A stretch of 58,541 bases of DNA from a virus (IMGVR_UViG_3300032282_004643:1-58541), one strand, 5' to 3'. Counted from the first letter of the stretch, positions 28,889 to 42,584 are shown. Translations and numbers: made by a program. The notes: a model not told the origin generated them from the sequence alone.

Positions 28889-28893
28889 ATATA

Positions 28894-29117: not shown

Positions 29118-29120
29118 ATA

Positions 29121-29205
29121 CGGACAGGGTGAGATTCGAACTCACGGAACCTTTCAGTTCGGCAGTTTTCAAGACTGCTGCCTTAAACCACTCGGCCACC
29201 TGTCC
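29121..29205 (-). tRNA. tRNA-Ser(TGA)
   Basis: Loop CTTGAAA, long variable arm, G73. Confidence 0.93.
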
Positions 29206-29213
29206 CGAAATAA

Positions 29214-29298
29214 AATAAGAACACTCCCTATCAAACAGTTACCTGTTCTTCCTGCCACCACAACAAGTGCGCCACGCCACGCACGGGATGTTCTTATT
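29214..29298 (-). ncRNA. Putative ~85-nt multi-stem RNA
   Basis: 14-bp closing stem enclosing GTGCG/CGCAC and AACAG-GTAA-CTGTT hairpins. Confidence 0.55.
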
Positions 29299-29302
29299 AA
29301 GA

Positions 29303-29375
29303 TGGAGCGGTCTGCCAGAGTTGAACTGCTCTTGTAAGCTGGAAGCTTACCGTGCTGACGTTACACTAAGACCGC
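29303..29375 (-). tRNA. tRNA-Gly(TCC), encoded CCA, imperfect T-stem
   Basis: GCGGTCT/AGACCGC-TCCA, loop CTTCCAG. Confidence 0.78.
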
Positions 29376-29381
29376 ATTTTA

Positions 29382-29570
29382 TTACTTAACTGCCGGACCT
29401 TCCTTCGGGGTGACTACGATTGTGTCTGCTGCCTTAACCGAATCAGTATTCAATTTGGTCGAATCAACTACCACAGCAGTACTGTCAGTAGTAACTTTAC
29501 CCTGAACTTCTGCATTCTTTGCACATGCTGCCAAACCAACTACTGCTACTGCGAGAATAAACTTGTACAT
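29382..29570 (-). CDS. Small lipoprotein
   Basis: MYKFILAVAVVGLAAC lipobox; GGAG SD. Confidence 0.7.
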   Translation of the reverse strand: MYKFILAVAVVGLAACAKNAEVQGKVTTDSTAVVVDSTKLNTDSVKAADTIVVTPKEGPAVK

Positions 29571-29642
29571 TGTGTACGCTCCATAAAAAATGAATAATGA
29601 AACAACCATTAAAATAATAAAATGTCACTACGATACTACAAG

Positions 29643-29713
29643 TTGCCCTCCAAGGATTCGAACCTTGACTCGCGGATCCAAAGTCCGCTGTCCTGCCGTT
29701 AGACGAAAGGGCA
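29643..29713 (-). tRNA. tRNA-Gln(TTG)
   Basis: Loop CTTTGGA, U1-A72. Confidence 0.93.
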
Positions 29714-29714
29714 A

Positions 29715-29778
29715 TGGTGGGAAGGGGATTGATAGGTTCCACTCTATCCAGCACCCCGCGGACTAGAACCGTTTCCCA
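29715..29778 (-). ncRNA. 64-nt CCA-ended tRNA-like RNA
   Basis: TGGGAA/TTCCCA-CCA closing stem, T-loop-like and D-loop-like hairpins, no anticodon arm. Confidence 0.5.
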
Positions 29779-29785
29779 TGCTGTT

Positions 29786-29884
29786 GCAACATTCCGCCAA
29801 GTTGCCAAGCGTGTACACCTGCGTCGTATACACAAAACGGTAGAGTTCATTAATTAACGTCAGACAACTCTACCAAGTTGACGG
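29786..29884 (-). ncRNA. Putative pseudoknot plus two hairpins
   Basis: GGTAGAGTT/AACTCTACC stem, CGTCA/TGACG cross-pairing, GTGTATAC/GTGTACAC, GCAAC/GTTGC. Confidence 0.45.
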
Positions 29885-29890
29885 GATCAA

Positions 29891-29983
29891 TTAGTGATTA
29901 CGCTTACGATTCTTCCAACGATTTCTTCGTTTTTTCGAACCGATCTTTCTCCGACCTTTACCGCACTTTTTAGGATGTGGCAT
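29891..29983 (-). CDS. 30-aa basic peptide, bS22/mS38(COX24)-like ribosomal protein candidate
   Basis: GGAG SD; MPHPKKCGKGRRKIGSKKRRNRWKNRKRNH. Confidence 0.6.
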   Translation of the reverse strand: MPHPKKCGKGRRKIGSKKRRNRWKNRKRNH

Positions 29984-30005
29984 GTTATTCTCCAAATTAC
30001 GTAAA

Positions 30006-30078
30006 TCCGCCTGGGTGGAATTGAACCACCTACCGGTCGCTTATAAGGCGACTGCTCTCACCGATGAGCTACAGGCGG
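30006..30078 (-). tRNA. tRNA-Ile(TAT)
   Basis: GTCGC-CTTATAA-GCGAC anticodon arm, A73. Confidence 0.85.
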
Positions 30079-30155
30079 AAAAACTACATTAGCAGTATCA
30101 TGCCTGACCAGTTTTCCGTTGCTCATCGTCCTACAATTTTACATAACCTCTTAAA

Positions 30156-30231
30156 TACCCCATAGGAGATTTGAACTCCTCTCTGCGGGATGAAAGCCCG
30201 CTATCCTCAATTCCGAATAGACGAATGGGGC
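30156..30231 (-). tRNA. tRNA-Glu(TTC)
   Basis: GCGGG-CTTTCAT-CCCGC. Confidence 0.9.
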
Positions 30232-30235
30232 AAAA

Positions 30236-30349
30236 TGGGGTGACAACTCTTCTGGTTTAACAACCCACTCTGGTTGTCTTCCCCATGTGGCCGAAAGATT
30301 TTGCACGTTCTTTCATTTAATCCCCTCGACTGCGCTTCGGGTCACCACA
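30236..30349 (-). ncRNA. Two tandem closed stem-loop RNAs at start of a transcript
   Basis: TGTGG/CCACA + CCGAAG/TTTCGG; TGGGG/CCCCA + GACAAC/GTTGTC. Confidence 0.4.
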
Positions 30350-30361
30350 TCCAACATTATT

Positions 30362-30390
30362 AATGTAACTAGGGTAGTTACCCCTGTCAA
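30362..30390 (-). promoter_or_regulatory. Sigma70-type promoter
   Basis: TTGACA-17-TACATT. Confidence 0.7.
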
Positions 30391-30394
30391 GGGG

Positions 30395-30907
30395 TTAAAA
30401 TCCCCGATATGCCATAATATTAGTTATTTTTTCACCAACTACACTAATACTATCTACTACTTTTACCTTTTGATTATCCAAATATACGGTAATTTCATTT
30501 ACCGATGTTCTGTTGTTTTCACCAGAATTATTCACAACAATTCTAATTGATTTAAATTGTTCAAATAATTTTCTGTTTGCTTCTAATACAGCTACCTTAC
30601 CGGTGAATACGTTTTCGTTCCATTCAGATAATACGATATCATCTGCGTATAATATACTCAATCGTTTTAAATCTTTTGCACAAAATGCTTCAAAATATTC
30701 CTTTACGATATTTCCAATAGGTTTTTCTCTACTCAACGGAAACAATAACCATGCAACTAAATAAATTGTAACAATTGGAAGTGGTGAAAAAAACGAACAA
30801 ATAAACACAAATCGAATAAATACAGGATCTATATTTAATTGCTCACCAATTCCTCCACAAAACCCCGCAAGTCTTTTATTTGTTGCACTACGATAAAATT
30901 TTCTCAT
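30395..30907 (-). CDS. PspC domain + SnoaL/NTF2-like domain fusion
   Basis: FYRSATNKRLAGFCGGIGE...YLVAWLLFP (PspC); YFEAF...LYADD (NTF2-like). Confidence 0.75.
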   Translation of the reverse strand: MRKFYRSATNKRLAGFCGGIGEQLNIDPVFIRFVFICSFFSPLPIVTIYLVAWLLFPLSREKPIGNIVKEYFEAFCAKDLKRLSILYADDIVLSEWNENVFTGKVAVLEANRKLFEQFKSIRIVVNNSGENNRTSVNEITVYLDNQKVKVVDSISVVGEKITNIMAYRGF

Positions 30908-30926
30908 GTTAACTCCATTGTAAAAA

Positions 30927-31000
30927 TAGGGGTGGTGAGAATCGAACTCACTTGATGTCTTGCTCCCAAAGCAAGCGGCTAGCCTTTAGCCCACACCCCT
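30927..31000 (-). tRNA. tRNA-Pro(TGG)
   Basis: CTTGC-TTTGGGA-GCAAG; A1-U72. Confidence 0.85.
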
Positions 31001-31531
31001 AAGTTTTTCTTTAATTTCGTTTACCGTTTGTTCTCCCCATTCGTTCGTATGAATCATCTGATGATGATTGGGGCAAACAGGAACCAAATTATCTTTATTG
31101 TTATTTTTATTATTATAATCTAGATGATGTACTTCTACAACTTTATCAAACCCACAAAGTATACATTTTTTTTCCCAATGTTTGAAACAAATAGTTCTAT
31201 AATTTTTCCAATTTTTTGGATTGTTTCTTCTAATTGCAAAATGAGTATTTGAACAAGAATGAGAACATGTAAACTTTTCTCGTGGATGATTCTTTTTTGT
31301 TTCAAACAACGTATTACAAACTGGACATGGTTTAGTAATAACTTCCCACTTTCGGTTGAATTTATTAATTGCAGCTTTATGCGAAAAATGCCTGGTGTCA
31401 ACCGAATATTGCTCGACCAGTTCTTTTAATCTTTTTAAGCCCTGACCATTGGGATGCATTCCCAGTTTTCTACAAACTTCGGATTTTGATACAGATGTTT
31501 TTACGATAGTTTCAAACTCTTTTTTTGTCAT
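30986..31531 (-). CDS. HNH homing endonuclease (stop inside tRNA-Pro)
   Basis: CILCG...VHHLD...NLVPVCPNHH; GGGAG SD. Confidence 0.85.
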   Translation of the reverse strand: MTKKEFETIVKTSVSKSEVCRKLGMHPNGQGLKRLKELVEQYSVDTRHFSHKAAINKFNRKWEVITKPCPVCNTLFETKKNHPREKFTCSHSCSNTHFAIRRNNPKNWKNYRTICFKHWEKKCILCGFDKVVEVHHLDYNNKNNNKDNLVPVCPNHHQMIHTNEWGEQTVNEIKEKLRGVG

Positions 31532-31571
31532 ACAATTCTCCCTTTCATATAAATAGTCGGGGAGTTGTGTT
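31531..31571 (-). promoter_or_regulatory. RBS-sequestering hairpin with late promoter in loop
   Basis: ACAA-CTCCC / GGGAG-AA-TTGT around TATTTATA (31548-31555). Confidence 0.65.
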
Positions 31572-31607
31572 TTCAATTCATATTTCAAATCCTTTGTTTA
31601 CGACACA

Positions 31608-31689
31608 TGCTCTCGGTGAGACTCGAACTCACAATCCCGTAGGGAAGCAGTTTTTGAGACTGCCGTGTATACCATTCCACCACAAGAGC
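31608..31689 (-). tRNA. tRNA-Leu(CAA)
   Basis: Loop CTCAAAA, long variable arm. Confidence 0.93.
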
Positions 31690-31770
31690 AAAACATAACC
31701 TCGTTTTGGTTCAATCGGCATGTTGAGCAATGAACCCCTTTTATACTATCACCCGTGTATGCCCACGGAA

Positions 31771-31842
31771 AGCACGTGATGGGAGTCGAACCCATGTCTC
31801 TAGCTTGGAAGGCTAGGATAATAACCGTTATATGACACGTGC
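31771..31842 (-). tRNA. tRNA-Gly(TCC)
   Basis: Loop CTTCCAA, U73. Confidence 0.9.
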
Positions 31843-31934
31843 GGCGAGGGTATTTTAACGCGGTTCCTCCTCCTCGGTCTGGCACGATTCCAGACGAGTT
31901 TGTAGTAATCCGATTAAGGTACTTGCAAACCCCC
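31843..31934 (-). ncRNA. Putative three-hairpin RNA
   Basis: GGGTTTG/CAAACTC, GTCTGG/CCAGAC, CGAGG/CCTCG. Confidence 0.45.
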
Positions 31935-31946
31935 AAAGTTAATGTA

Positions 31947-32019
31947 TGGGCAGTATAGGATTCGAACCTATGACCTCCGGTGTGTAAAACCGATGCGCTA
32001 ACCGCTACGCTAACCGCCC
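31947..32019 (-). tRNA. tRNA-Val(TAC)
   Basis: Loop TTTACAC. Confidence 0.92.
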
Positions 32020-32427
32020 GTTTTTATATCTTCCAACTTTATACGATTGTAAATAAGAATTTCTTTTAGTATTTTTCTTATTTCTACTCACCCAAGTTTC
32101 TGTTTGTGAATGACAATTTGGACACAACAATCTTAAATTATTTGGAAAATTGTTATCTGAATTGCCGTCTATGTGATCTACTTGCAATGTTATTGGTTTA
32201 TTATTATAAATGTCTCCTATCCCACATTCTGCACAAACACATCCTTTTATTTCTTTTAAATACTTTCTTAATGTAGATGTTTGATTTACTATACCTTCTT
32301 CTACCCTCGGTATAGTTTCTGTTAGGAACTTAAATAATCCTTGACACTTGTTACTGCAATAAGTTCCAGTACTTTGTGACGGAGAAAATTTAAATTCTAT
32401 TCCACAATTCTTACAATTTGCTTTCAT
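32005..32427 (-). CDS. HNH homing endonuclease (stop inside tRNA-Val)
   Basis: CAECG...LQVDHIDGN...NLRLLCPNCHSQT. Confidence 0.9.
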   Translation of the reverse strand: MKANCKNCGIEFKFSPSQSTGTYCSNKCQGLFKFLTETIPRVEEGIVNQTSTLRKYLKEIKGCVCAECGIGDIYNNKPITLQVDHIDGNSDNNFPNNLRLLCPNCHSQTETWVSRNKKNTKRNSYLQSYKVGRYKNGRLA

Positions 32428-32434
32428 AAAAATC

Positions 32435-32479
32435 TCCAAGTTAGACCTTCTCTATATAAATAGGGGGTATAACTTGGAA
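32435..32479 (-). promoter_or_regulatory. RBS-sequestering hairpin with late promoter in loop
   Basis: TCCAAGTTATACC / GGTCTAACTTGGA around TATTTATA (32455-32462). Confidence 0.7.
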
Positions 32480-32493
32480 ACTTCTATTTTAAA

Positions 32494-32566
32494 TGGACCT
32501 GAACGGGATCGAACCGATGACCTCCTGAATGCAAATCAGGCGCTCTCCCAGCTGAGCTACAGGCCC
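32494..32566 (-). tRNA. tRNA-Ala(TGC)
   Basis: G3-U70, loop TTTGCAT. Confidence 0.95.
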
Positions 32567-33132
32567 GTATTGTACGGAATTAAATTTAATAAATAATCTT
32601 GATTTATCAAGTACCAGTCGTATGTGAGTTCCGTTGGTATTTCTATCAATGTTCCGTCACCACGTTCTAATATTGTCAACCCAAGTTCTATATCAAATGT
32701 CCTAACAACAAAATTATTTTTTATACTTCTAAACTTTGCAATAGCTTTCCACACATCACCCGTCCACAATCCACGTTCACACAATTCTGTGTGATGTGGC
32801 ATCGGAGAACGTTGCATTAATTCTGTGTGTGGTTTTGTATCATGAATAAATATTATACCATTGTCTGATAAATGTTTAATGCTGTTATCAATGTCACGCA
32901 GTGCTTGGTTACACTCATGATCACCATCAATGAAAATTAAATCATATGTGTGATTACAATTTTCAAAAAACTCATCGGACTTCATTGGATATAACATATC
33001 CTTGTTATGTGGATCTACACCGTGTTTTATTTGACAATTCACGTTATAGAATGTACCACCATTACTTACACCGATTTCTAAATATCTTGTATAACCTCGT
33101 CGTGAGATTATATTATTAAATAATTCAAACAT
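32557..33132 (-). CDS. Class I SAM-dependent methyltransferase (Methyltransf_24-like)
   Basis: YLEIGV, DLIFIDGDH, GIIFIHD; stop inside tRNA-Ala. Confidence 0.8.
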   Translation of the reverse strand: MFELFNNIISRRGYTRYLEIGVSNGGTFYNVNCQIKHGVDPHNKDMLYPMKSDEFFENCNHTYDLIFIDGDHECNQALRDIDNSIKHLSDNGIIFIHDTKPHTELMQRSPMPHHTELCERGLWTGDVWKAIAKFRSIKNNFVVRTFDIELGLTILERGDGTLIEIPTELTYDWYLINQDYLLNLIPYNTGL

Positions 33133-33144
33133 ACATTCTCCAAG

Positions 33145-33216
33145 AGCGAGAGATGGGATTCGAACCCACGACAACGTGCTTGGCAAGCACGGACTCTACC
33201 GCTGAGCTACTCTCGC
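33145..33216 (-). tRNA. tRNA-Gly(GCC)
   Basis: Loop TTGCCAA. Confidence 0.93.
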
Positions 33217-33221
33217 ATTTA

Positions 33222-33386
33222 CTACACAGGACCAACTTCATAATGCGTCAATACTTTTCCATTTAATTTTTTTTGTGCATCAGCATCATTACGAAACATT
33301 GTAATTGCTGCCGTTGCTTCCGGTGCATCGTATGTAAAATCCATACGTCCACCATCAAAATATATTCGTACTAAATACTTAATCAT
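33222..33386 (-). CDS. 54-aa hypothetical protein
   Basis: Manual ORF MIKYLVRIYFDGG... filling the gap. Confidence 0.55.
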   Translation of the reverse strand: MIKYLVRIYFDGGRMDFTYDAPEATAAITMFRNDADAQKKLNGKVLTHYEVGPV

Positions 33387-33408
33387 ATTATTCTCTACAA
33401 ATAATATC

Positions 33409-33837
33409 TTACTTAATATTTTTTGCTCTGTATGTTTCTGTCTGTGCGTGACAATTAGGACATAACATACGAAGATTATTTAACTTATGATTTGTTCTAT
33501 TACCGTCTATGTGGTCCAATTCCATCACTAACTTTTTACCGTTCCATTCTGTTATTCCACATACCGAACACACATTTTTTATAATTCCTTCTTTTAACAA
33601 TCTATTTTTCAACTTAAAGGTTTGAAACTCTGGATGTTTCCCTGCTAATATTTCTTTTAGGTCAATACGAGGCGAAACTTTTTTATCTATTCCTACTCCA
33701 CCTTGATTTATTTTATAACAACCAAGTTTTACCGCTCTACGTTTGAATGTATTGAAATGTAATCCAGTTTTTACAGCGGCTTGTGCCATACTGATTGAGT
33801 TTTCACATATTTCAATAAACTGCTTGTCCGTCATCAT
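33409..33837 (-). CDS. HNH homing endonuclease
   Basis: CSVCG...ELDHIDGN...NLRMLCPNCHAQT. Confidence 0.9.
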   Translation of the reverse strand: MMTDKQFIEICENSISMAQAAVKTGLHFNTFKRRAVKLGCYKINQGGVGIDKKVSPRIDLKEILAGKHPEFQTFKLKNRLLKEGIIKNVCSVCGITEWNGKKLVMELDHIDGNRTNHKLNNLRMLCPNCHAQTETYRAKNIK

Positions 33838-33843
33838 GCTTGT

Positions 33844-33882
33844 CTCCATTAGTGCTACTTATAAATAGTAGACACTACGGAA
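33844..33882 (-). promoter_or_regulatory. RBS-sequestering hairpin with late promoter in loop
   Basis: TCCGTAGTGTCTACT / AGTAGCACTAATGGA around TATTTATA (33860-33867). Confidence 0.7.
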
Positions 33883-33907
33883 AAAATTTCATTTGTGTTT
33901 ACCAGAA

Positions 33908-33990
33908 TGCCCAGGGCGAGACTCGAACTCGCATGACCGTAAGGCCGGAGCATTTTAAGTGCTCTGTGTATACCATTTCACCACCAGGGC
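33908..33990 (-). tRNA. tRNA-Leu(TAA)
   Basis: Loop CTTAAAA, long variable arm. Confidence 0.93.
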
Positions 33991-34002
33991 GTACGGATGG
34001 AT

Positions 34003-34197
34003 GTTGTAGTATCCTCTCATTTTATAGAGAAGAATTTACCTATCATCATTAGTGCCATCCTCACTAATGTTTATCCATACACGTTGATTTCTACTTACGG
34101 ATTCTTCCCTTGCACCGTTGTAGTGGTGTCTCACGTAAGGATCATAGAGAAGTCGTGTGGCGCGGGAATCACTCCTACCGCGGGTAAGTTCTACAAC
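34003..34197 (-). ncRNA. ~195-nt multibranched structured RNA of unknown class
   Basis: Nested stems: GTTGTAG/CTACAAC, GAACTTACC/GGTAAATTC, CGCGG/CCGCG, ACACG/CGTGT, CTTACG/CGTAAG, CATTAGTG/CACTAATG. Confidence 0.65.
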
Positions 34198-34228
34198 CAA
34201 CTCACAATTATTAATAAGCGTTACTTCA

Positions 34229-34301
34229 TGCCCCCAACAGGACTCGAACCTGCAACTTACTGGTTAAAAGCCAGCTACTCTGCCAGTTGAGTTATGGAGG
34301 C
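34229..34301 (-). tRNA. tRNA-Lys(TTT)
   Basis: Loop CTTTTAA. Confidence 0.93.
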
Positions 34302-34318
34302 GTTTGACTTACACAAGT

Positions 34319-34347
34319 AATATACACTCTCAACATACCCATGTCAA
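34319..34347 (-). promoter_or_regulatory. Sigma70-type promoter
   Basis: TTGACA-17-TATATT. Confidence 0.75.
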
Positions 34348-34406
34348 GCCCCAGTTAAATAAATAGTAATTAATACTATTTTTTTCGGGTTTTTAAATTT
34401 TTTATA

Positions 34407-34490
34407 CGGAAGGTGAGGGATTCGAACCCACATGACCGATTAAGGTCGTCGGTTTAGTAGACCGGTGCAATACCATTATGCGAACCTTCC
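34407..34490 (-). tRNA. tRNA-Ser(ACT)
   Basis: CGGT-CTACTAA-ACCG, long GACC/GGTC variable arm, G73. Confidence 0.82.
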
Positions 34491-34499
34491 CCAAATCTA

Positions 34500-35522
34500 T
34501 TAGTAATCTGCTTCCCAGATTTCTTTTGTATCTTGATATTTTTCAATTAGTTCTTTTTTGGAATGTTCAATGTAATTATCACCGTCAAACCAACCAGAAC
34601 CTTTGTGCTTTACCATATCTACATATCCACGAAGTTGAACTTTTGTAATATCGTGATGACCAGCTTGTAGAAAATATTGAACTATTCCACCTTTGTCGTG
34701 ACTAACTATTAATTGCAGTTTGTCACTCCCAAATTCCTTCCATAATTTTTCTAAATCTTCATGTTGTCCTTTATGTGCTTTAAATTCATTTGGATAATGA
34801 CAAGAAATCCAATTAAACTTATACCGATTAGCACATTCTCGTGACAAACCTACAAAATCATTTCTAACTTTTTGTTGTTGTAAATTAAAAACTAATCGTG
34901 GATTGTTTACATAATGTTGATCCGATAATCTTTCGTTTACTGTTAACTTACGTATCATATAATCGTATGTCAACGAATTTTCATTATATATTTCCATACG
35001 TACTGGTTCGTCGAAGATATATTCTTTTTCTCTGTATCGAAAATTGTATGGATATGCATCTCCAGCCAAAGAAACGAATACCGAACTGTTAACCGTTGTT
35101 AATCCGTGAATAGAATCTAAATGATTTTTAAAGTTTGGGAGAAATTCAATATCAGTGTCCGTATGAAAAATCCAATCGGCGTCAAAAAAATTATATTTTT
35201 TAGAGTAGTCAAACATCATATTCATGTTTAATCCAATCTTGGCAAACCAATGTTGGCTTTTCATAAACTCTACTGATTTTTCTGGTAACTCCATTTCGTT
35301 GATATTACGAACTTCCACAACATCTTCCAATCCAAACTCTCTAACACGTTTCCACGTTAAACTATCTTCGGACTTTTCTGGATTCGCGTTATTAAATAGT
35401 ATGACCTTAGTTTCAAAATATGGAACTACATTTACTTTTAAAGAAGCTAGATAAAGATTTATATATCGTAAATCTTCTTCTTCATTAGTTTTTCCACAAG
35501 TTGATAATATCAAAATTTTCAT
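34500..35522 (-). CDS. Putative GT-A fold glycosyltransferase
   Basis: WIFHTDTDIEF DxD motif; otherwise unrecognised. Confidence 0.5.
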   Translation of the reverse strand: MKILILSTCGKTNEEEDLRYINLYLASLKVNVVPYFETKVILFNNANPEKSEDSLTWKRVREFGLEDVVEVRNINEMELPEKSVEFMKSQHWFAKIGLNMNMMFDYSKKYNFFDADWIFHTDTDIEFLPNFKNHLDSIHGLTTVNSSVFVSLAGDAYPYNFRYREKEYIFDEPVRMEIYNENSLTYDYMIRKLTVNERLSDQHYVNNPRLVFNLQQQKVRNDFVGLSRECANRYKFNWISCHYPNEFKAHKGQHEDLEKLWKEFGSDKLQLIVSHDKGGIVQYFLQAGHHDITKVQLRGYVDMVKHKGSGWFDGDNYIEHSKKELIEKYQDTKEIWEADY

Positions 35523-35537
35523 AATTTCTCCGAAGCA

Positions 35538-35611
35538 CGGAATGGACGGGACTCGAACCCGCAACCCCCGCAGTGACAGTGCGGTGCGCTAACCGATTGC
35601 GCCACCACTCC
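35538..35611 (-). tRNA. tRNA-Asp(GTC)
   Basis: Loop CTGTCAC, G73. Confidence 0.95.
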
Positions 35612-35620
35612 AAACATCAA

Positions 35621-35878
35621 TTACTTAATTTTATTTTGTGTGACAGTTTCGTAAAGCTTTTCAAACTCCTGATGCGTTGCTACTTCGTCATCAAAGTTCT
35701 GCTTGTGATATGTTTTTGCCAACTTACGAAAAACTTTCTTGTTAAGTTGAAGTTCTTCACAAACATCATTGATAATGTTTTTCTGCAAATCTCGTTCTGC
35801 GGAAATTCGTGTCATGGACACACTCATATCCTTCAATGCGCCTTCAAGTTTCAACTTATCGTTTGGTGTCAAATTCAT
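35621..35878 (-). CDS. dsbA: T4 DsbA-like dsDNA-binding protein
   Basis: KKVFRKLAKTYHKQNF...FEKLYETV resembles T4 DsbA (not the disulfide oxidoreductase). Confidence 0.75.
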   Translation of the reverse strand: MNLTPNDKLKLEGALKDMSVSMTRISAERDLQKNIINDVCEELQLNKKVFRKLAKTYHKQNFDDEVATHQEFEKLYETVTQNKIK

Positions 35879-35907
35879 AATAACCTCGTTGTTGTGATTT
35901 TGTAAAG

Positions 35908-35980
35908 CTCCCAGAGAGGGACTCGAACCCCCGACCCGGTGATTAACAGTCACCTGCTCTACCGACTGAGCTATCTGGGA
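35908..35980 (-). tRNA. tRNA-Asn(GTT)
   Basis: Loop CTGTTAA. Confidence 0.95.
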
Positions 35981-35984
35981 ATGT

Positions 35985-36009
35985 GTGGGAGGTTATTTAG
36001 ACCTCCCAC
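35985..36009. terminator. Stable hairpin after Ig-like gene (terminator or processing stem)
   Basis: GTGGGAGGT/ACCTCCCAC 9-bp stem; no clear U-tract. Confidence 0.45.
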
Positions 36010-36016
36010 TGTACTA

Positions 36017-37144
36017 TTATGGTACGATTACTACCTTTCCTACCTTGCTGATAGCACCAATGGTTGCGGTGATATCTGCTGGTCCTACTGCTACACCTGT
36101 AACTAGTCCTGTTGCCGACACAACTGCCTTAGTTGCGTCGCTACTAGTCCATACAAATAATCTACCATTTAACGCTGCAGTTGTCAAGGCTACACTGTCT
36201 GCATCAAATGCTTGTGCAGTAAATTGCTTTGTAGCACCAACTTTTACATCTGTACTGTCAGGAGTTACAACAATACGATGAATCCCAACTTGTGATACTG
36301 TTACATTTAGAATGCCAACCTTACCTTCAACAACACACGTTAATGTGGTTGTACCAGCAGAAATTCCTGTTACTACGCCCGTTGATGTAATTGTTGCGAC
36401 AGTCGTATCTGTGCTTGCCCAACCAAAAGTACGTTGATCAGAGCTCAATGTTGTTCCTGCCGCATTCTTTAATGTGGAAATTACTTGAATTGAACGACCA
36501 ATTTGTGCTGCCTTGGTGGTTGAAAGTGTAACATTTGATACAGGAACTAACGTAGTGGTAACAACCAATGTACCTGACTTACCACCAGCGGTTGCCGTAA
36601 TAGTTGCGGCACCGGCAGATACTGCCGTAATTAATCCAGTTGATGATACCGTTGCAACTGCCGAATTACTTGTTGTCCACGTTGTAGCGAACGATGTTAA
36701 TGTATTATTCGCACCGTCCTTTGCCGTTGCTGTTGCTTGTAACGTCTGTCCTACATAAAATATAGGTGGTACCGTTGCAGTAACATTAACGGTTGCTACC
36801 GTTGGATCTACGACGAATAATTGTACAGATGCGGTTTTGTTATCTACCGTTGCGATAATAGTAGCATTACCCTTTGCAACACCAGTAACAATATTTCCAG
36901 ATAACGTAGCTACCGTAGTATTATTGGATGACCAAATAACTGTTTTACCTGTCATTACGGAATCTCTTTGATCCTTAACTACCGCGGTAAATATTGTTGT
37001 GCGACCAACTTCAACTTGTGCTGCAGTTGGTGTGATTACAATTGACGTTACCGTTGGAACAAACTGTGCAGGTGCGGTTGTAACATCTTCCGAACATGCC
37101 GTAACGCCTAGTACCAGCAATGCTCCATACAAAATACGTTTCAT
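36017..37144 (-). CDS. Lipoprotein with four Big_2 Ig-like domains
   Basis: LGVTAC lipobox; repeated WxSSNxxVATVxxxGxVTGVxxGxATITAT. Confidence 0.85.
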   Translation of the reverse strand: MKRILYGALLVLGVTACSEDVTTAPAQFVPTVTSIVITPTAAQVEVGRTTIFTAVVKDQRDSVMTGKTVIWSSNNTTVATLSGNIVTGVAKGNATIIATVDNKTASVQLFVVDPTVATVNVTATVPPIFYVGQTLQATATAKDGANNTLTSFATTWTTSNSAVATVSSTGLITAVSAGAATITATAGGKSGTLVVTTTLVPVSNVTLSTTKAAQIGRSIQVISTLKNAAGTTLSSDQRTFGWASTDTTVATITSTGVVTGISAGTTTLTCVVEGKVGILNVTVSQVGIHRIVVTPDSTDVKVGATKQFTAQAFDADSVALTTAALNGRLFVWTSSDATKAVVSATGLVTGVAVGPADITATIGAISKVGKVVIVP

Positions 37145-37213
37145 TTTTTTTCTCCTACTGAGGTATTCCGACACAACGGAGTGTTGTGCCTTCTAAGCCG
37201 GGATATCCCGACA

Positions 37214-37285
37214 CGGGACCACTAGGACTCGAACCTAGACAAACAGTTTTGGAGACTGTTGTGCTGCCAATTACACTATGGACCC
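37214..37285 (-). tRNA. tRNA-Trp(CCA)
   Basis: Loop CTCCAAA, G73. Confidence 0.9.
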
Positions 37286-37290
37286 AACAA

Positions 37291-37363
37291 TGCCAAGAGA
37301 GGGAGTCGAACCCCCGACGCCCAGCTCTTCAGGCTGGCGCTCTACCAACTGAGCTATCTTGGC
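37291..37363 (-). tRNA. tRNA-Phe(GAA)
   Basis: Loop CTGAAGA. Confidence 0.93.
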
Positions 37364-37368
37364 ATCTA

Positions 37369-37441
37369 TGCACCGTGAAGGAATCGAACCTTCAGCCTGG
37401 TGATTAAGAGTCACATGCTCTGCCAATTGAGCTAACGGTGC
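37369..37441 (-). tRNA. tRNA-Lys(CTT)
   Basis: Loop CTCTTAA. Confidence 0.93.
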
Positions 37442-37445
37442 AAAG

Positions 37446-37519
37446 TAGTCCCTATTGGATTTGCACCAATGACCTTTGCTTTATCAGAGCAACGCTCTAA
37501 CTAACTGAGCTAAGGGACT
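37446..37519 (-). tRNA. tRNA-Ile(GAT)
   Basis: Loop CTGATAA; variant T-loop TGCAAAT. Confidence 0.88.
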
Positions 37520-37541
37520 GTATGAATTATACAATTTTATG

Positions 37542-37624
37542 TGGTATCGGTAGGACTCGAACCTACAAGCTCTTTCGAGGGCTGATTTACAGTCAACTGA
37601 GCCAACCAATTGCTCAACGATACC
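37542..37624 (-). tRNA. tRNA-Tyr(GTA)
   Basis: Loop CTGTAAA, long variable arm. Confidence 0.92.
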
Positions 37625-37652
37625 ATTGCCGCTAGGCGACACTCCCGAACTA

Positions 37653-38234
37653 CTATTTTTTCAAATCGTTTTTAACATCTCGTGATACTTTATTAAGATA
37701 TTTCTTACGAGTAATATCATCAACAAACGGTACACTCCAAAATTGTCGTGTGTTTGTCTTGAACCATCCAAACACAAATGAATATACACCTAATACCAAC
37801 CGAAGTTTTACAGCGTTGAAATATAAAAAATAAACAGGAAGTGCAGGTGCTCCATGTGTTAAGTATGTACGAACTTTCTTGTGTGACAATAATGGTTTAG
37901 GATAACCATATTTTGGAATTAACGGAACAAATTTATATGCGAATCCTGGCGTGAATACGACATCAAAAAATTCTTCCATTAGTGGCGTACACCGAAACCA
38001 CCATACAGGTGATATAATGTAAATTCTATCTGCCCATGTCACCAATTCTTGATAGTGTTTGATAACTTCCTTCTTTTTAATAGAAAGGTCATCCTTATAT
38101 AAATCAATGACTTCTATGGTTTGTGTAGATTCATAGCTTGCGTTATTAGTTAATTCGTCTTTAATGGTTTTAAAAATACCATTATAACAAAAACTTTTCT
38201 TATCAGGGTGTCCGATGACTATTAAATTGTTCAT
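37653..38234 (-). CDS. Flavodoxin-fold NAD(P)H-dependent oxidoreductase
   Basis: GHPDKKSF, WADRIYIISPVWW, VFTPGFAY. Confidence 0.85.
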   Translation of the reverse strand: MNNLIVIGHPDKKSFCYNGIFKTIKDELTNNASYESTQTIEVIDLYKDDLSIKKKEVIKHYQELVTWADRIYIISPVWWFRCTPLMEEFFDVVFTPGFAYKFVPLIPKYGYPKPLLSHKKVRTYLTHGAPALPVYFLYFNAVKLRLVLGVYSFVFGWFKTNTRQFWSVPFVDDITRKKYLNKVSRDVKNDLKK

Positions 38235-38262
38235 TTCACTCCTTGCAAAAGTTATAAGTCAA

Positions 38263-38338
38263 TAGCACGGGTGGGACTCGAACCCACATAAACCCGCCTT
38301 ATGAGAGCGGTGCCTCAGCCAGTTCAGACCACCGTGCC
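38263..38338 (-). tRNA. tRNA-Met (or Ile2) (CAT)
   Basis: CCGCT-CTCATAA-GGCGG. Confidence 0.85.
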
Positions 38339-38446
38339 CTGTTCTAATTCTTTTAACTGTTTTAATGTTGCGTATTTTTTTCTCAAATTAACATTTCTAC
38401 TGTCATTTTTTAACTTATTTTTGTTACCACCCTTATAAGTTTCTGA
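38324..38446 (-). pseudogene. C-terminal remnant of an HNH endonuclease
   Basis: SETYKGGNKNKLKNDSRN...GTVV* resembles post-CPNCH tails of neighbours (TETYRAKN, TETWVSRNKKN); stop lies inside tRNA(CAT). Confidence 0.6.
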
Positions 38447-38466
38447 TGGTCTAACTTACGAAAACA

Positions 38467-38490
38467 TCTCACCAGTTGAGCTACCCTGCC
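38467..38490 (-). pseudogene. Orphan 5' tRNA fragment
   Basis: GGCAGGGTAGCTCAACTGGTGAGA = acceptor 5' strand + D-arm, no anticodon or T arm. Confidence 0.7.
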
Positions 38491-38642
38491 AATTTTCTTA
38501 TAAATATTTTAATCCAAACAATTAACTTTTTCAAATTAGAAAATTGTCTCCATCTCTTAATTTCATCAATTGTACGATAACATCCCACACAATTAATTCC
38601 ATTAAGCTTACATATTTTTTTACATGGTGAAGTTACAACCAT
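38481..38642 (-). CDS. DUF1289-family small Cys-rich protein
   Basis: SPCKKICK...CVGCYRTIDEIKRW. Confidence 0.75.
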   Translation of the reverse strand: MVVTSPCKKICKLNGINCVGCYRTIDEIKRWRQFSNLKKLIVWIKIFIRKLAG

Positions 38643-38651
38643 TTGTGTATA

Positions 38652-38807
38652 TCAATATTGTTTAGAGTCCATCGCGTGTTGGATGTCTCCACCTTCCAAT
38701 ACATCAATATTTTTCCTATGTCCATCATATAAGATGAAGGTTAAAATAAGTATTGTTGTAATGCAAATAATTGTAACAAATACATTTTTAATTACAGTTG
38801 GACGCAT
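38652..38807 (-). CDS. 51-aa membrane protein
   Basis: AAGGAGG SD; single TM helix. Confidence 0.6.
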   Translation of the reverse strand: MRPTVIKNVFVTIICITTILILTFILYDGHRKNIDVLEGGDIQHAMDSKQY

Positions 38808-38831
38808 GTATCCTCCTTGAAAAATATTAAG

Positions 38832-38903
38832 AGGTACGGGTCGGAATCGAACCGACGTATAGAGGTTTTGCAGACCTCGGCCTTACCGCTTGGCGACCGT
38901 ACC
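38832..38903 (-). tRNA. tRNA-Cys(GCA)
   Basis: Loop CTGCAAA, U73. Confidence 0.93.
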
Positions 38904-38908
38904 ATAAG

Positions 38909-38982
38909 CACCCCCGGAGAGATTTGAACTCCCATCGGACGCTTTAGAAGAGCGTTGCCTTATCCAATTAGACCACGGGGGT
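38909..38982 (-). tRNA. tRNA-Arg(TCT)
   Basis: Loop CTTCTAA. Confidence 0.92.
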
Positions 38983-38987
38983 ATTTT

Positions 38988-39347
38988 CTATTTACTCAAA
39001 CTATGCCGAACAGGTTTTCCATTATCATCAAGACAAACGAACACCATTTCGTCAATATTAACAATAATTTTTTGTGTTGTTAAATCACGTACTTGTACTT
39101 CTAATGTAACAGATGTCTTTCCTACTTTTTTTAAAGCAATTCCAATTTCAACAATATCACCTTGATACGCAGGTGCGATGAAATTGATAGCGGAAATACT
39201 TTTAGTAACTACCCGTTTATGCCGTGTTTCGATTGCGGCATATATTGCTGCTTCTTCGTCTACCCACGCCAAACAACGTCCACCAAACAGAGTGTTGTTC
39301 CCGTTTAAATCTCCAGGTTGCACCCACTTACGTGTAAGAAATCGCAT
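38988..39347 (-). CDS. Acyl-CoA thioesterase (hotdog fold)
   Basis: DLNGNNTLFGGRCLAWVDEEA; VGKTSV; MVFV. Confidence 0.85.
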   Translation of the reverse strand: MRFLTRKWVQPGDLNGNNTLFGGRCLAWVDEEAAIYAAIETRHKRVVTKSISAINFIAPAYQGDIVEIGIALKKVGKTSVTLEVQVRDLTTQKIIVNIDEMVFVCLDDNGKPVRHSLSK

Positions 39348-39368
39348 AAAACCTTTATCTAATTGTTA

Positions 39369-39442
39369 TGCCCCAAGCAGGAGTTGAACCCACAACCCTC
39401 TGATCCGAAGTCAGATGCTCTATCCAGTTGAGCTATTGAGGC
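39369..39442 (-). tRNA. tRNA-Arg(TCG)
   Basis: TCTGA-CTTCGGA-TCAGA. Confidence 0.9.
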
Positions 39443-39450
39443 AAACTACA

Positions 39451-39942
39451 TTAATCCCACAGTCCTTCGTAATATTTACCAAACAACCGGAACCCGTTGG
39501 TGATACGGAGTTGATAATTCTTTGATGCATCCCAATCACAGTCACCCTCCGTTAACCAACGAACGGGCTTGAATTCTTTTCCTTCATCTTCGGGATAGTT
39601 TGTTAAATCCAGTCTAGGAGTTTCCTTCCAGAACTGTTCTTGCCAATCGGTGAGTTTACTTTCAAACGCAAATATCATTTCGTCCATAACCCAATCCCAC
39701 CGTTGAAAATGTTTTTCATCTACGTCAGATGGGTCTACGTTTTCCGAACGAAGATGTTCTGGTACATCACTCATATCCACATAGGGAGCGCCGTGTTTGG
39801 TTTCCTTCAACTGCTTGAGCATAGGAATAACGATGTGTGCCAACGTGGTATCCATGTTCCACGTATCCCATGGATCAATTTGGATATACATCTTACGTTC
39901 TTCATCAGAAGTTTCTGGGTACTTTCCAATATGGATATTCAT
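39451..39942 (-). CDS. Conserved phage hypothetical protein
   Basis: IDPWDTWNMDTTLA...GFRLFGKYYEGLWD. Confidence 0.7.
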   Translation of the reverse strand: MNIHIGKYPETSDEERKMYIQIDPWDTWNMDTTLAHIVIPMLKQLKETKHGAPYVDMSDVPEHLRSENVDPSDVDEKHFQRWDWVMDEMIFAFESKLTDWQEQFWKETPRLDLTNYPEDEGKEFKPVRWLTEGDCDWDASKNYQLRITNGFRLFGKYYEGLWD

Positions 39943-39965
39943 AATTTGAGTAGTTAAATGTTTAG

Positions 39966-40040
39966 GGTGAATGACGGGATTCAAACCCGCGACCCTCGGA
40001 ACCACAATCCGATGCTCTAACCAGCTGAGCTACAATCACC
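39966..40040 (-). tRNA. tRNA-His(GTG)
   Basis: G-1/C73, loop TTGTGGT. Confidence 0.92.
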
Positions 40041-40046
40041 ACAAAA

Positions 40047-40128
40047 TGCACTCGGTGGGGGTCGAACCCACACACCCGAAAGTGCTGCATCCTAAGTGCA
40101 GTGCGTCTGCCAGTTCCGCCACGAGTGC
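40047..40128 (-). tRNA. tRNA-Leu(TAG)
   Basis: Loop CTTAGGA, long variable arm. Confidence 0.92.
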
Positions 40129-40133
40129 AATTC

Positions 40134-40571
40134 CTACATAAATTTTCTACTGTGATTTGGTGTTAGTGCATGACAGTTAGGACATAATATTTGTAAATTA
40201 TCCAAACTATTGTTGTGTCTATCCCCATCTTTGTGATGTAATTCCAATGTAAGTTTTTTACCCATCCACTCACTAACACCACACATCTCACAGTTTTCTT
40301 GTTTCAATCCATCTTGAATAAGTTTCTTTCTTAGCGTTGGAACCTTTACTCCATATTGTTTATCGGCGTATTCCAAAGCTGATTTTCTATGCGGTGATTT
40401 TTTATGTCCTTTTTCACCCATATTCCCTGCATAAACTATATTCCATTTTTTTAAGTAACTTTCTAATGTACTTGTTCTACAATCTAACTGTCTACAAATG
40501 TATGCTTTCGGTCTATTTTCCTTGATCCAAAGTTCTACATCTGCTCTTCGTGTAAGAATGTCTTTTCTCAT
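40134..40571 (-). CDS. HNH homing endonuclease
   Basis: CEMCG...LELHHKDGD...NLQILCPNCH. Confidence 0.9.
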   Translation of the reverse strand: MRKDILTRRADVELWIKENRPKAYICRQLDCRTSTLESYLKKWNIVYAGNMGEKGHKKSPHRKSALEYADKQYGVKVPTLRKKLIQDGLKQENCEMCGVSEWMGKKLTLELHHKDGDRHNNSLDNLQILCPNCHALTPNHSRKFM

Positions 40572-40628
40572 ATATGCTCCTATCAAGGTTCATATATAAA
40601 TAGTATACTCTATGTCCAAAAATATAGT

Positions 40629-40658
40629 GTGTAGACCAATTCCGCCACGAGTGCAATT
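40629..40658 (-). repeat. Duplicated 5' end of tRNA-Leu(TAG) upstream of HNH
   Basis: AATTGCACTCGTGGCGGAA(T/C)TGG present here and at 40110-40132. Confidence 0.85.
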
Positions 40659-40668
40659 AACTACTATG

Positions 40669-40696
40669 AATATACAATATTATACATAATAGTCAA
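40669..40696 (-). promoter_or_regulatory. Sigma70-type promoter heading tRNA island
   Basis: TTGACT-16-TATATT. Confidence 0.6.
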
Positions 40697-40728
40697 TTGA
40701 AAAACAAAAACTTAATCAATTCTTAATG

Positions 40729-41352
40729 TTAGAATTTATTTTCATCTCGTTCTGCCGAACAAGCCATATGGTCAGCCCAATGGATAATGTACGGAAGATT
40801 TGTTTTCATCGGATATACTGAATGATTCTTCAAATAAGCTTTATTACTATCATCGTACATACCATCCGACAACTTAATTGCAATCCATTCCTTTTCCGTA
40901 ACAGGAATTTCATACTTCTGCAAAAGATACAGAGCCCTATCAGTAACAGTCATATATTGCAGATTATCATTGTACTTATACATCTCTCCACGCTTACGAT
41001 GCCAATCACTATCTTGGTCAAGATAATATCCACCCTGCTCATTACCCAACTTACCCAAATCGTGATGAAGTGCTGCAAAAATCATTTCCTGCTTGGTAAA
41101 ATCAATCTCACCACCTATTGTCTTGTATGCCGTAGCAACTTTCATAGATGCCTCAGCAACATGGACTACGTGATCAAGATATCCACCAGGGAATGCATTG
41201 TGATAGTGGACCTTACCAGACGCAGGCGCTGAAATTAGCTGTTCACCGAACACTTCGTACATCTGATTCAACTTTTCAAGTCGAGGATCTTCGGCGAGAA
41301 ATGCGTTGAACTTTTCCAAATTTTTCTTAGCTTTTTCTTCGTAATCAAACAT
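40729..41352 (-). CDS. HD-domain phosphohydrolase
   Basis: APAS...HNAFPGGYLDH...LHHDLGK...WAD. Confidence 0.85.
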   Translation of the reverse strand: MFDYEEKAKKNLEKFNAFLAEDPRLEKLNQMYEVFGEQLISAPASGKVHYHNAFPGGYLDHVVHVAEASMKVATAYKTIGGEIDFTKQEMIFAALHHDLGKLGNEQGGYYLDQDSDWHRKRGEMYKYNDNLQYMTVTDRALYLLQKYEIPVTEKEWIAIKLSDGMYDDSNKAYLKNHSVYPMKTNLPYIIHWADHMACSAERDENKF

Positions 41353-41362
41353 AACCGTTTCC

Positions 41363-42049
41363 TTAGTAGTTAAAGTTTTGGAAATCTTCACGGTACAACT
41401 CCCCCAATAAAGATAACAGGGTGGAGTCGGTAAAGTCAACCCCCAAATTATTAGGATATTTACGATATAATGTATTATCAAATGTATATCCCAATTCTGT
41501 TTCTATAAAATATGATAATTCTTGTAAATTTTCATATTTAAAAATTCTTAACTTTTCTTTTGGTCCATTTAATAAAAACGTCTGTGATACCACAAAGGGT
41601 ACTCGTAAACAATTATCGGTGGTAGATATTAGATATTTACCAAATCTATGTTTGATACTATCTCTAACATTTAACCAGTATGCACTTTCACCGTTTTTAT
41701 ATACTGCTCTAAAAAAGTTAGTTTTTTCTTTTTTTAATAACAACATATCTTGTAAGAAATATATTACATCTAATGTCGTTGGTAATGTTTCCAGATTTAA
41801 TTTGCATTCACCGCATGCACATACACTGAAAATATGATTCAATCCAGAACGAAACCTACTCACAGGATGTCTAACTGTTGTAAATGCGTCCAACAAACCA
41901 TACTGCGAAATTAATTCTTCGTATGTATTATGACTCTGACTGTCAATGGGCATAGAAGGGAAAAACGTTCTCATCACTGCCGTAGAAGCAGTTTTGGGAA
42001 CGTTCACCCATAACCATTGTTTCTTATCAATGTTTGAAGTTATCAACAT
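41363..42049 (-). CDS. Sulfotransferase family 2 protein
   Basis: VNVPKTASTAV (5'-PSB) and VRHPVSRFRS (3'-PB) motifs. Confidence 0.8.
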   Translation of the reverse strand: MLITSNIDKKQWLWVNVPKTASTAVMRTFFPSMPIDSQSHNTYEELISQYGLLDAFTTVRHPVSRFRSGLNHIFSVCACGECKLNLETLPTTLDVIYFLQDMLLLKKEKTNFFRAVYKNGESAYWLNVRDSIKHRFGKYLISTTDNCLRVPFVVSQTFLLNGPKEKLRIFKYENLQELSYFIETELGYTFDNTLYRKYPNNLGVDFTDSTLLSLLGELYREDFQNFNY

Positions 42050-42051
42050 TA

Positions 42052-42579
42052 TTACGTAACTAGTGTTATTCTATTATATCGTGATTGTTGTCTGGTCCAA
42101 AGTTCAAATATTGTTGGAATTGTAGGTACCTTCATCAAAACCATTCCTGTATCTACCAACAATTTATCCGCCTTCTTATTGTTACAAGTACTACAACTTG
42201 TAACCACATTAGTCCATTCATCCTTACCACCCTTTGCAACAGGATGAACATGATCACGTGTCAAGAATTCATGAGACTTTAACTCACCACGCGCACGATA
42301 ACAATACTGACAAGTGTATGCGTCACGAACAAACATATTTTTCTGTGTAAGTAACGCTGGTGTTTTAAATACCCGGCGGCCTTTAATGTAATGTTTTAGA
42401 GCAATCATTACTGGTATCGGAAATGTTTGCCTGGGTGACCGTGCTACCAAGTCAGGATGTTCCTCAATTATGATAGCCTTTCCTTCCAAAAACAACAGTA
42501 ACGCTCGTTTGGAAGATACCACTGTTATAGGCTCGTACGTGGCATTCAGAACAACACACTTTGTTGTTTCTAACGCCAT
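42052..42579 (-). CDS. HNH endonuclease (McrA/HNH_5-like, cellular type)
   Basis: VLNATYEPI...RDAYTCQYC...TRDHVHP...GG...WTNVVTSCSTCNNKK. Confidence 0.88.
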   Translation of the reverse strand: MALETTKCVVLNATYEPITVVSSKRALLLFLEGKAIIIEEHPDLVARSPRQTFPIPVMIALKHYIKGRRVFKTPALLTQKNMFVRDAYTCQYCYRARGELKSHEFLTRDHVHPVAKGGKDEWTNVVTSCSTCNNKKADKLLVDTGMVLMKVPTIPTIFELWTRQQSRYNRITLVT

Positions 42580-42584
42580 AAAAT

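Follow-up and report, generated by a model that had tools for sequence, protein, structure and literature searches.

The viral contig IMGVR_UViG_3300032282_004643 (58,541 nt; GC content 37%, estimated completeness 30%) was analysed whole and is referred to here as the window; nearly all of its genes are oriented on the minus strand. Between positions 28804 and 40129 it carries an island of 29 tRNA genes, also on the minus strand, all 29 of which score above the Rfam tRNA cut-off (29 bits). Four intact genes encoding HNH endonucleases, named here H1 to H4, are lodged in this island or at its edge, and this work deals with these genes, their distribution among related viruses and their relation to the tRNA genes that stand beside them.

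H1 (30986..31531, 181 aa), H2 (32005..32427, 140 aa), H3 (33409..33849) and H4 (40134..40571, 145 aa) all lie on the minus strand and all match HNH families of PHROG (at 2e-14, 1.3e-23, 3.7e-33 and 5.6e-23, respectively), which confirms the four intact HNH genes noted in a preliminary description of this DNA. The probable start of H3 is the ATG at 33837, which is preceded by GGAG. Against the Pfam HNH model, whose cut-off is 21.4 bits, H2 scores above the threshold (27.3 bits), H4 and H3 fall just below it (21.2 and 20.9 bits), and H1 gives no match. The columns C94, C97, H113, D115, N125, C130, P131, N132 and H134 are invariant in the four proteins (CxxC...H-x-D...N...CPNxH), and we take them to be the catalytic and zinc-bound beta-beta-alpha positions of the HNH (His-Me finger) endonucleases. 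The GIY-YIG family is absent from the Pfam and PHROG matches of H1 to H4, and a sequence search with H3 against solved structures gave no meaningful match. No intron family was detected at E <= 0.1 within 28000-44500, the tRNA genes are uninterrupted, and the flanking tRNAs align over the full Rfam tRNA model (positions 1-71); H1 to H4 are independent open reading frames (ORFs) that lie outside any intron or intein.

Three of these genes run up to, or into, the tRNA gene that follows them on the minus strand. The 3' end of H1 lies 15-16 nt inside the 5' end of a divergent tRNA-Pro(UGG) (30926..31001, minus strand; Rfam 54.0 bits), its stop codon TAA falling in the D loop, and the 3' end of H2 lies 15 nt inside a divergent tRNA-Val(UAC) (31947..32019, minus strand; 69.9 bits), with the stop codon TAG in the D arm. 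The stop codon of H4 is separated by 4-5 nt from an intact copy of tRNA-Leu(UAG) (40046..40129, minus strand; 52.9 bits). The downstream neighbour of H3 is a gene for a 54-aa protein and no tRNA; upstream of H3 stands a tRNA-Leu(UAA) (33908..33990, minus strand).

The state of these sites in other viruses was followed in 36 loci, designated by L numbers, which were fetched through the HD-like gene that lies upstream of H4 and served as the anchor; 20 of them (L005-L024) have a syntenic island. H4 is present in none of the 20, most of which have the stop codon of the anchor gene and tRNA-Leu(UAG) 10-13 nt apart. H3 occurs in one of the 15 loci that cover its site (L012, 100% amino acid identity), and where it is missing tRNA-Leu(UAA) and the 54-aa gene are separated by 7-20 nt. 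H2 was found in none of 14 covering loci, the spacing between tRNA-Ala and tRNA-Val being 1-5 nt in L009, L014 and L018, and H1 in one of 12 (L009, 80% amino acid identity), with 2-16 nt between tRNA-Leu(CAA) and tRNA-Pro at the empty sites; a scan with the H1 protein only returned the L009 contig again and nothing else. H1 to H4 show a sporadic presence among close relatives, as free-standing homing endonuclease genes do. On the left, the breakpoints coincide with the 3' end of the tRNA upstream or lie 24-28 nt into the resident tRNA, which leaves the orphan fragments dealt with below; on the right, they fall in or just past the downstream tRNA or, for H3, where the next gene starts. The preliminary description had regarded the HNH cassettes as mobile and tied to tRNA genes, and had named the mapping of empty sites against relatives as the check on this view; the mapping yielded empty alleles for all four genes and, with the next gene forming the right side of H3, no breakpoint unrelated to a tRNA was seen, so that mobility and the tie to tRNA genes are both supported.

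A recent transfer appears at H3. A patch of about 780 bp on the minus strand (33280..34056, approximate limits taken from identity profiles) is common to the window and L012 at about 100% identity, and contains tRNA-Leu(UAA), H3 and the first ~100 nt of the next gene, whereas outside the patch the two sequences are 75-90% identical. On either side of the H3 site, L012 is in turn 97-100% identical to its sister L005, which lacks the patch; tRNA-Leu(UAA), which lies within the patch, is the same in the window and L012 and different in L005. Judged from these identities, the patch has the form that homing with co-conversion classically leaves behind. Such a co-conversion tract was observable for H3 alone. 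It had been proposed that the nucleases spread with the allele of the neighbouring downstream tRNA: H3 did travel with tRNA-Leu(UAA) over a short distance, but the tRNA that travelled is the upstream one.

At the other sites the tRNA beside the nuclease gene departs from the alleles of the relatives. The tRNA-Pro linked to H1 is 90.8% identical to the allele of L009, which is also linked to H1, and at most 65.8% identical to those of relatives lacking the HNH gene; the tRNA-Val linked to H2 and the tRNA-Leu(UAG) linked to H4 reach at most 79.7% and 87.1% identity, respectively, to the alleles of relatives. The anticodon of each replaced tRNA is the same as that found at the position in relatives without the HNH gene. 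The further proposal that the cassettes diversify the tRNA set is not supported by these sequences, in which every replaced tRNA retains the anticodon of its position.

Two orphan 5' tRNA fragments that had been pointed out earlier are indeed present, both on the minus strand. The one upstream of H4 (40627..40654) comprises the first 28 nt of a tRNA-Leu(UAG) of the resident type and matches the resident tRNA-Leu(UAG) of L005, the sister without the HNH gene, at 26 of 28 positions, whereas the intact tRNA-Leu(UAG) after H4 is another allele. H4 is bracketed by a direct repeat of 33 nt (85% identity; 40626-40658 versus 40100-40132), and the upstream copy of the repeat contains the orphan. The other (38467..38490) comprises the first 24 nt of a canonical tRNA(CAT), 22-24 of 24-25 positions matching the relatives. 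At this site eight distinct relatives have one canonical tRNA(CAT), of which the window retains only these 24 nt, followed by a spacer of 128 nt (38339..38466, minus strand) and by a tRNA(CAT) of a second allelic type (38263..38338, minus strand; 43.1 bits) that replaces the canonical one and is also found in L009 and L015. The spacer may be what is left of the 3' end of an HNH gene that has decayed. One of its frames is open throughout and runs 15 nt into tRNA(CAT), with the stop codon TGA at 38324-38326, and it aligns to the C-terminal tails of the HNH family in the correct register, just past CPNCH; the score is 50, against 38.7 +/- 4.3 for shuffled sequences, and 50 was reached in 3 of 300 shuffles. 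BLASTN and TBLASTX searches with the spacer gave no HNH similarity, and the HNH remnant formerly placed at 38324 is thereby reduced to a sequence that weakly resembles an HNH tail.

Orphans ending at tRNA nucleotides 16-28 also stand upstream of homologous HNH genes on other contigs, at about seven of the 75 loci tested (L206, L212, L215, L216, L253, L125 and L054); on the reverse strand, used as a control, matches never exceeded 15 of 25. L206 and L212 have the orphan, the nuclease gene and tRNA-Val in common as a unit, at about 78% identity and in unrelated flanks, and therefore in that case the orphan moves with the unit. We considered that a cassette might bring the first 22-28 nt of a tRNA and re-use the 3' half of the resident gene; however, by eye, no pairing is seen between the orphans of L212 and of the CAT site in the window and the 3' acceptor strand of the intact tRNA, which means that at these sites the tRNA was exchanged as a whole. 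For H3-like genes preceded by a tRNA, a mirror test for 3' tRNA orphans on the downstream side gave nothing beyond tRNA-like T arms that had not been called, with mean matches of 13.6 (forward) and 13.3 (reverse) of 28.

The association with particular tRNA genes extends to the wider HNH family, which was scanned with alignments of the four proteins, the best 80 loci of at least 592 candidate stretches being taken for each; the counts that follow hold among the matches listed. There are 85 non-redundant H3-like genes, 46 of which have a tRNA gene on the same strand within 200 nt upstream. This tRNA is Leu(UAA) in 21 of the 46, against 51 of 562 for all tRNAs there (p = 9e-11); it usually lies 43-53 nt from the ATG, the 21 pairs are spread over 10 unrelated flank contexts, and seven further genes have a Leu(UAA) within 30 nt downstream. 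Four of eight full-length H4-like genes (44-55% identity) end between -10 and +2 nt from a tRNA-Leu(UAG) (p = 4e-4), another follows a Leu(UAG), and yet another precedes a Leu(UAG)-like sequence not called by ARAGORN. Among 52 full-length H2-like genes, the stop codon lies no more than 30 nt from a tRNA in 31: Val(UAC) in 8 of the 31 (p = 5e-5) and Val(GAC) in 2, these belonging to the closest relatives of H2, and Thr(UGU) in 8, which belong to more distant ones. Distant relatives of H1 overlap tRNA-Ala genes with odd D arms. When the identity of the downstream tRNA was mapped on a tree of 148 homologues it required 31 changes, versus at least 41 in each of 200 shuffles. Each HNH subfamily tracks one tRNA type, Leu-UAA for the H3-like genes, Leu-UAG for the H4-like genes, and Val-UAC or Thr for the H2-like genes. 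Homologues with 39-50% identity to H3 are also present in two cultured T4-like phages, Erwinia phage Cronus and Edwardsiella phage PEi20, where they lie between tRNA genes and beside tRNA-Leu.

Upstream of each of the four HNH genes, 10-27 nt 5' of the ATG, stands the motif TATTTATA on the minus strand (31548..31555 before H1, 32455..32462 before H2, 33860..33867 before H3 and 40595..40602 before H4). Relatives without a cassette also lack the corresponding copy, so that each cassette brings its own motif. The window contains 12 copies of TATTTATA on the minus strand and 2 on the plus strand (Poisson p ~0.002 for the minus strand alone); taking both strands, 14 copies compare with 8.8 expected, and 14 were reached in 6 of 100 shuffles. 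The motif also shortly precedes several ordinary genes (for example at 6125-6132, 22802-22809 and 57940-57947, minus strand), often in the form ACTATTTATA; being spread over the genome and biased to the sense strand, it is not private to the HNH cassettes. The motif attributed to every intact HNH gene is thus there before all four, as a general sense-strand motif of this genome, and it may act as a promoter for them. In homologous HNH modules on other contigs the spacer between tRNA and HNH gene has TATAAATA instead of TATTTATA. We take TATAAATA to be the T4 late-promoter consensus, and the lineage of the window may use a different late-type promoter word.

From the comparisons above we consider it likely that H1 to H4 spread by homing through double-strand-break repair, with a tRNA gene serving both as landing site and as co-converted marker. 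Free-standing HNH homing endonuclease genes, each with its promoter-like motif, would have colonised the tRNA island. The nuclease would cut an allele that lacks its gene, within or next to a particular tRNA gene, and repair templated by a co-infecting carrier genome would then copy in the nuclease gene and the tRNA allele adjoining it. Where homology is lacking to the left of the break, the resident tRNA would leave its 5' stump as an orphan, and different nuclease subfamilies would prefer the genes of different tRNA isoacceptors. Judging by the ends of the orphans, the cut may fall on the 3' side of the D arm, at about nucleotides 22-28 of the tRNA, a placement that we hold at slightly less than even confidence. 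A broader picture can be offered more tentatively, and we would sooner expect it to need revision than to stand as it is: a widespread HNH clade would have split into subfamilies specialised for single isoacceptors, each entering 3' of the D arm and bringing along, at the 3' end of the element, an entire tRNA as a substitute, with the ORF often ending inside it, while the resident 5' stump would become the next left homology arm. If this were true, tRNA genes would be both target and cargo, the tRNAs of these phages would undergo continual allelic turnover, and this turnover might matter in an arms race with host defences that cleave tRNAs. H1 and H2 end inside tRNAs, and therefore processing by RNase P could remove their stop codons; one may speculate that the products are then fed to the tmRNA of the phage. 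This idea about RNase P and stop codons echoes a remark on segB in the available sections of PMC2330249.

Several observations weigh against homing directed at tRNA genes, and part of them would follow equally if selfish HNH insertions had simply accumulated in a dispensable, densely packed tRNA island with no specificity for tRNAs, their proximity to tRNA genes and the repetition of the same partner being due to packing density and shared descent. The positions given earlier for four of five HNH genes adjoining a downstream tRNA hold, but ten ordinary genes of the island also abut or overlap the next tRNA. The gaps in these non-HNH genes are 5, 5, 6, 7, 8, 9, 28, 36 and 162 nt, and the conserved methyltransferase gene has its stop codon 10 nt inside tRNA-Ala, in the D arm (32557-32566). 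In L005 the p53 gene overlaps tRNA(CAT) by 8 nt, and from these two overlaps it follows that the overlap of genes and tRNAs is a general habit of the island. The partner tRNA switches often, with 31 changes among 58 labelled rows of the tree, which was built with FastTree only and in which related rows share labels; the close H2 relatives L204, L205, L207 and L210 have no tRNA within 1.5 kb; the family samples are partial and ranked by similarity to the proteins of the window; nuclease-like genes of other families also occur in the islands of relatives; and orphans are found at only a minority of loci, the seven or so of 75 mentioned above. Nevertheless, insertion into a merely permissive region seems improbable to us in view of the strong isoacceptor enrichment, the appearance of Leu(UAA) paired with an HNH gene in 10 unrelated flank contexts, the orphans cut at similar tRNA positions on unrelated contigs, and the H4-like genes which, at an identity of merely 44-55%, still end within 10 nt of tRNA-Leu(UAG). 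Two further points bear on what is carried along and on how carriers would be protected. The linked tRNAs of the window are closer to those of local relatives than to the tRNAs of homologous HNH genes elsewhere; for this reason the idea that the linked tRNA travels with the nuclease over long distances was discarded, and there is no stable HNH-tRNA unit on that scale. The canonicality of the D arm (of 6) averages 5.17 in HNH-linked tRNAs against 5.35 in the other tRNAs of the fetched loci, a marginal difference (one-sided p = 0.036), and 49 of 100 linked tRNAs have a fully canonical D arm. The recoded, cleavage-resistant tRNA copy that had been put forward therefore finds little support, and immunity of carriers through a recoded tRNA is doubtful; disruption of a site spanning the 5' boundary of the tRNA is possible as the source of immunity and at least as likely.

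Homing with co-conversion has also to be set against a history in which the HNH genes are kept for a benefit to the phage, either the exclusion of co-infecting relatives or the amplification or exchange of tRNAs in response to host defences that cleave them. SegB drives segmental amplification of a tRNA-Tyr locus and thereby an escape from Septu, according to the sections available of PMC13096335, and in the window all four genes are intact, each behind the promoter-like motif of the phage itself. Yet a patchy occurrence among close relatives marks a selfish element rather than a function that is retained, the surroundings of the cassettes show no tandem amplification, and the anticodons of the replaced tRNAs are unchanged, so that we regard domestication as quite improbable. 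All sequences compared here are metagenomic contigs, and related strains co-occur in lake metagenomes, which could suggest that co-assembly of such strains produced the H3 patch and the mosaic of tRNA alleles as chimeras. An artefact of this kind is scarcely credible: contigs of run X1, possibly the source of the window, cover its arrangement without differences; the arrangement of L012, with a 694-nt insertion beside H3, is bridged by contigs of 2883 nt in two further runs; and the arrangements of L011/L012/L013 and of L005-L008 recur in separate samples. In three other runs of lake metagenomes, near-identical contigs have H1 nearly unchanged. No clean joint skipping a cassette was found on the contigs of four runs, H2 and H4 being little covered in X2, X3 and X10, and the joints that were listed have sides of 20-22 nt inside tRNAs and are probably cross-matches.

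The free-standing T4 endonucleases SegF, SegG and MobE cut the nuclease-free allele near the insertion point, and repair co-converts the flanking markers. The general mechanism of intronless homing, to which PMC13096335 also refers, is the same as that proposed for H1 to H4, but the targets of those enzymes are protein-coding, whereas here the flanking markers are tRNA genes and a stump of the target is left behind. In group I introns, endonucleases of tRNA genes are encoded within the intron, and the tRNAs of the window differ in being uninterrupted. T4 SegB is a free-standing GIY-YIG nuclease encoded in a tRNA cluster; it recognises the T-psi-C element of tRNA genes and spreads with the surrounding T4 tRNA genes to the exclusion of those of the recipient (PMC2330249, available sections). 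SegB homologues are enriched near tRNAs across phages and show no isotype preference (PMC13096335, available sections). H1 to H4 resemble SegB in being free-standing nuclease genes that lie in a phage tRNA cluster and spread with tRNA genes. They differ in belonging to the HNH and not to the GIY-YIG type, and, in place of a T-psi-C target without isotype preference, their subfamilies keep to single isoacceptors and the orphans indicate the side of the D arm; orphan 5' tRNA stumps are present here, and none are described for SegB in the available sections of the two papers (PMC2330249, PMC13096335). The tRNA cluster of phage T5 also contains ORFs for site-specific endonucleases (PMC2330249, available sections), and F-TflIV is listed as an HNH enzyme (PMC5714182); the likeness to T5 drawn here, endonuclease ORFs in a phage tRNA cluster, is one of description. 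HNH endonuclease genes are core genes of some viral tRNA clusters, such as the arrays of mycobacteriophages, and have been suggested to spread tRNA genes; in the sections available this is a remark at the level of annotation, without empty sites, orphans or isoacceptor specificity (PMC6409571). The homologues in Cronus and PEi20 bear the generic name "HNH endonuclease", or are unannotated in the case of PEi20, with no function recorded. Full-text searches, which left subscription journals and supplements outside, returned no account of HNH subfamilies specific to an isoacceptor, nor of orphaned tRNA stumps. The spread of free-standing nucleases among phage tRNA genes is therefore known behaviour, as SegB illustrates, and it is the tRNA-type-specific HNH form that appears to be new.

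On this reading of H1 to H4 as homing genes, the idea developed for SegB, a single GIY-YIG enzyme, would come to cover a large HNH clade with isoacceptor preference, and the empty sites, together with the fresh co-conversion patch, would offer a clean natural example of nuclease genes that turn over the tRNA genes of phages. Concrete DNA targets, that is, specific tRNA gene sequences, are predicted for nucleases that are so far uncharacterised. Oddities in the annotation of phage tRNA islands, such as stop codons inside tRNAs, orphan 5' fragments and divergent alleles at conserved positions, would also be explained. The swapping of phage tRNA alleles is of interest because several host defences cleave tRNAs, although for H1 to H4 themselves any link to host defence would be hypothetical.

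Other nuclease-like genes and cassette-like arrangements were observed in the window and in its relatives. A fifth HNH gene of the window (42052-42579, minus strand) matches Pfam HNH and HNH_5 at about 1e-12; it is syntenic in L005-L034, with 60-88% identity, and looks fixed rather than mobile. At L012:18862-19431, where the window and L005 have tRNA-Gly(GCC), there is a gene for a 189-aa nuclease-like protein with a NUMOD3 motif, whose stop codon falls within an odd replacement tRNA-Gly(GCC) that has a non-canonical T loop and is not called by ARAGORN; a similarly odd T loop follows an H4-like gene in L122. L015 encodes a 218-aa zinc-ribbon protein that belongs to no Pfam or PHROG family (7232-7888), between tRNA-Ala and a divergent tRNA-Val. 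This gene ends at a TAG in the D arm, a tRNA-like sequence that was not called lies upstream of it, and the C-terminal part of the protein gives the impression, and only that, of a restriction-endonuclease-type motif. A GC-richer stretch of about 147 nt is shared at 75% identity by the window (28887-29031, minus strand) and L015 (1161-1307), with a tRNA just downstream in both; the L015 copy has a truncated tRNA-Leu(UAG) on one side and an intact one on the other, as a cassette would. This stretch has no Rfam match, and the predicted RNA fold of 28889-29044 and of its L015 counterpart is no better than that of shuffled sequences (z = 0.24 for both).

The window also codes for a T4-type DsbA-like regulator and for a baseplate wedge protein, the latter identified by PHROG, whose nearest cultured relatives, at ~38-39% identity, are in Microcystis phage Mel-JY01 and in Flavobacterium phages; from these two proteins and these relatives it follows that the window belongs to an uncultured large myovirus. 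In a nucleotide search, cultured phages matched the region 30000-41000 only in single tRNAs. A tmRNA gene lies at 43616-43956 (minus strand; Rfam 110.7 bits), and the tags of the tmRNAs vary among relatives (GNTQLALAA, GNYTLALAA, GNEYLALAA, GNQNLALAA and GNYNLALAA), one group having a long, aberrant tag call. The island includes a tRNA-Ser with anticodon ACT (34407-34490, minus strand) that is kept across all syntenic relatives (L005-L024); for Ser, A is an unusual first base of the anticodon. Two island tRNAs are duplicated, Trp(CCA) at 29045-29118 and 37213-37286 and Gly(UCC) at 29303-29375 and 31771-31840, and L011-L013 likewise hold two copies of tRNA-Trp. In the middle of the island, a gene on the minus strand (36017-37174) encodes a predicted lipoprotein with four Big_2 domains, which is 56-60% identical to its counterparts in relatives, far below its neighbours.

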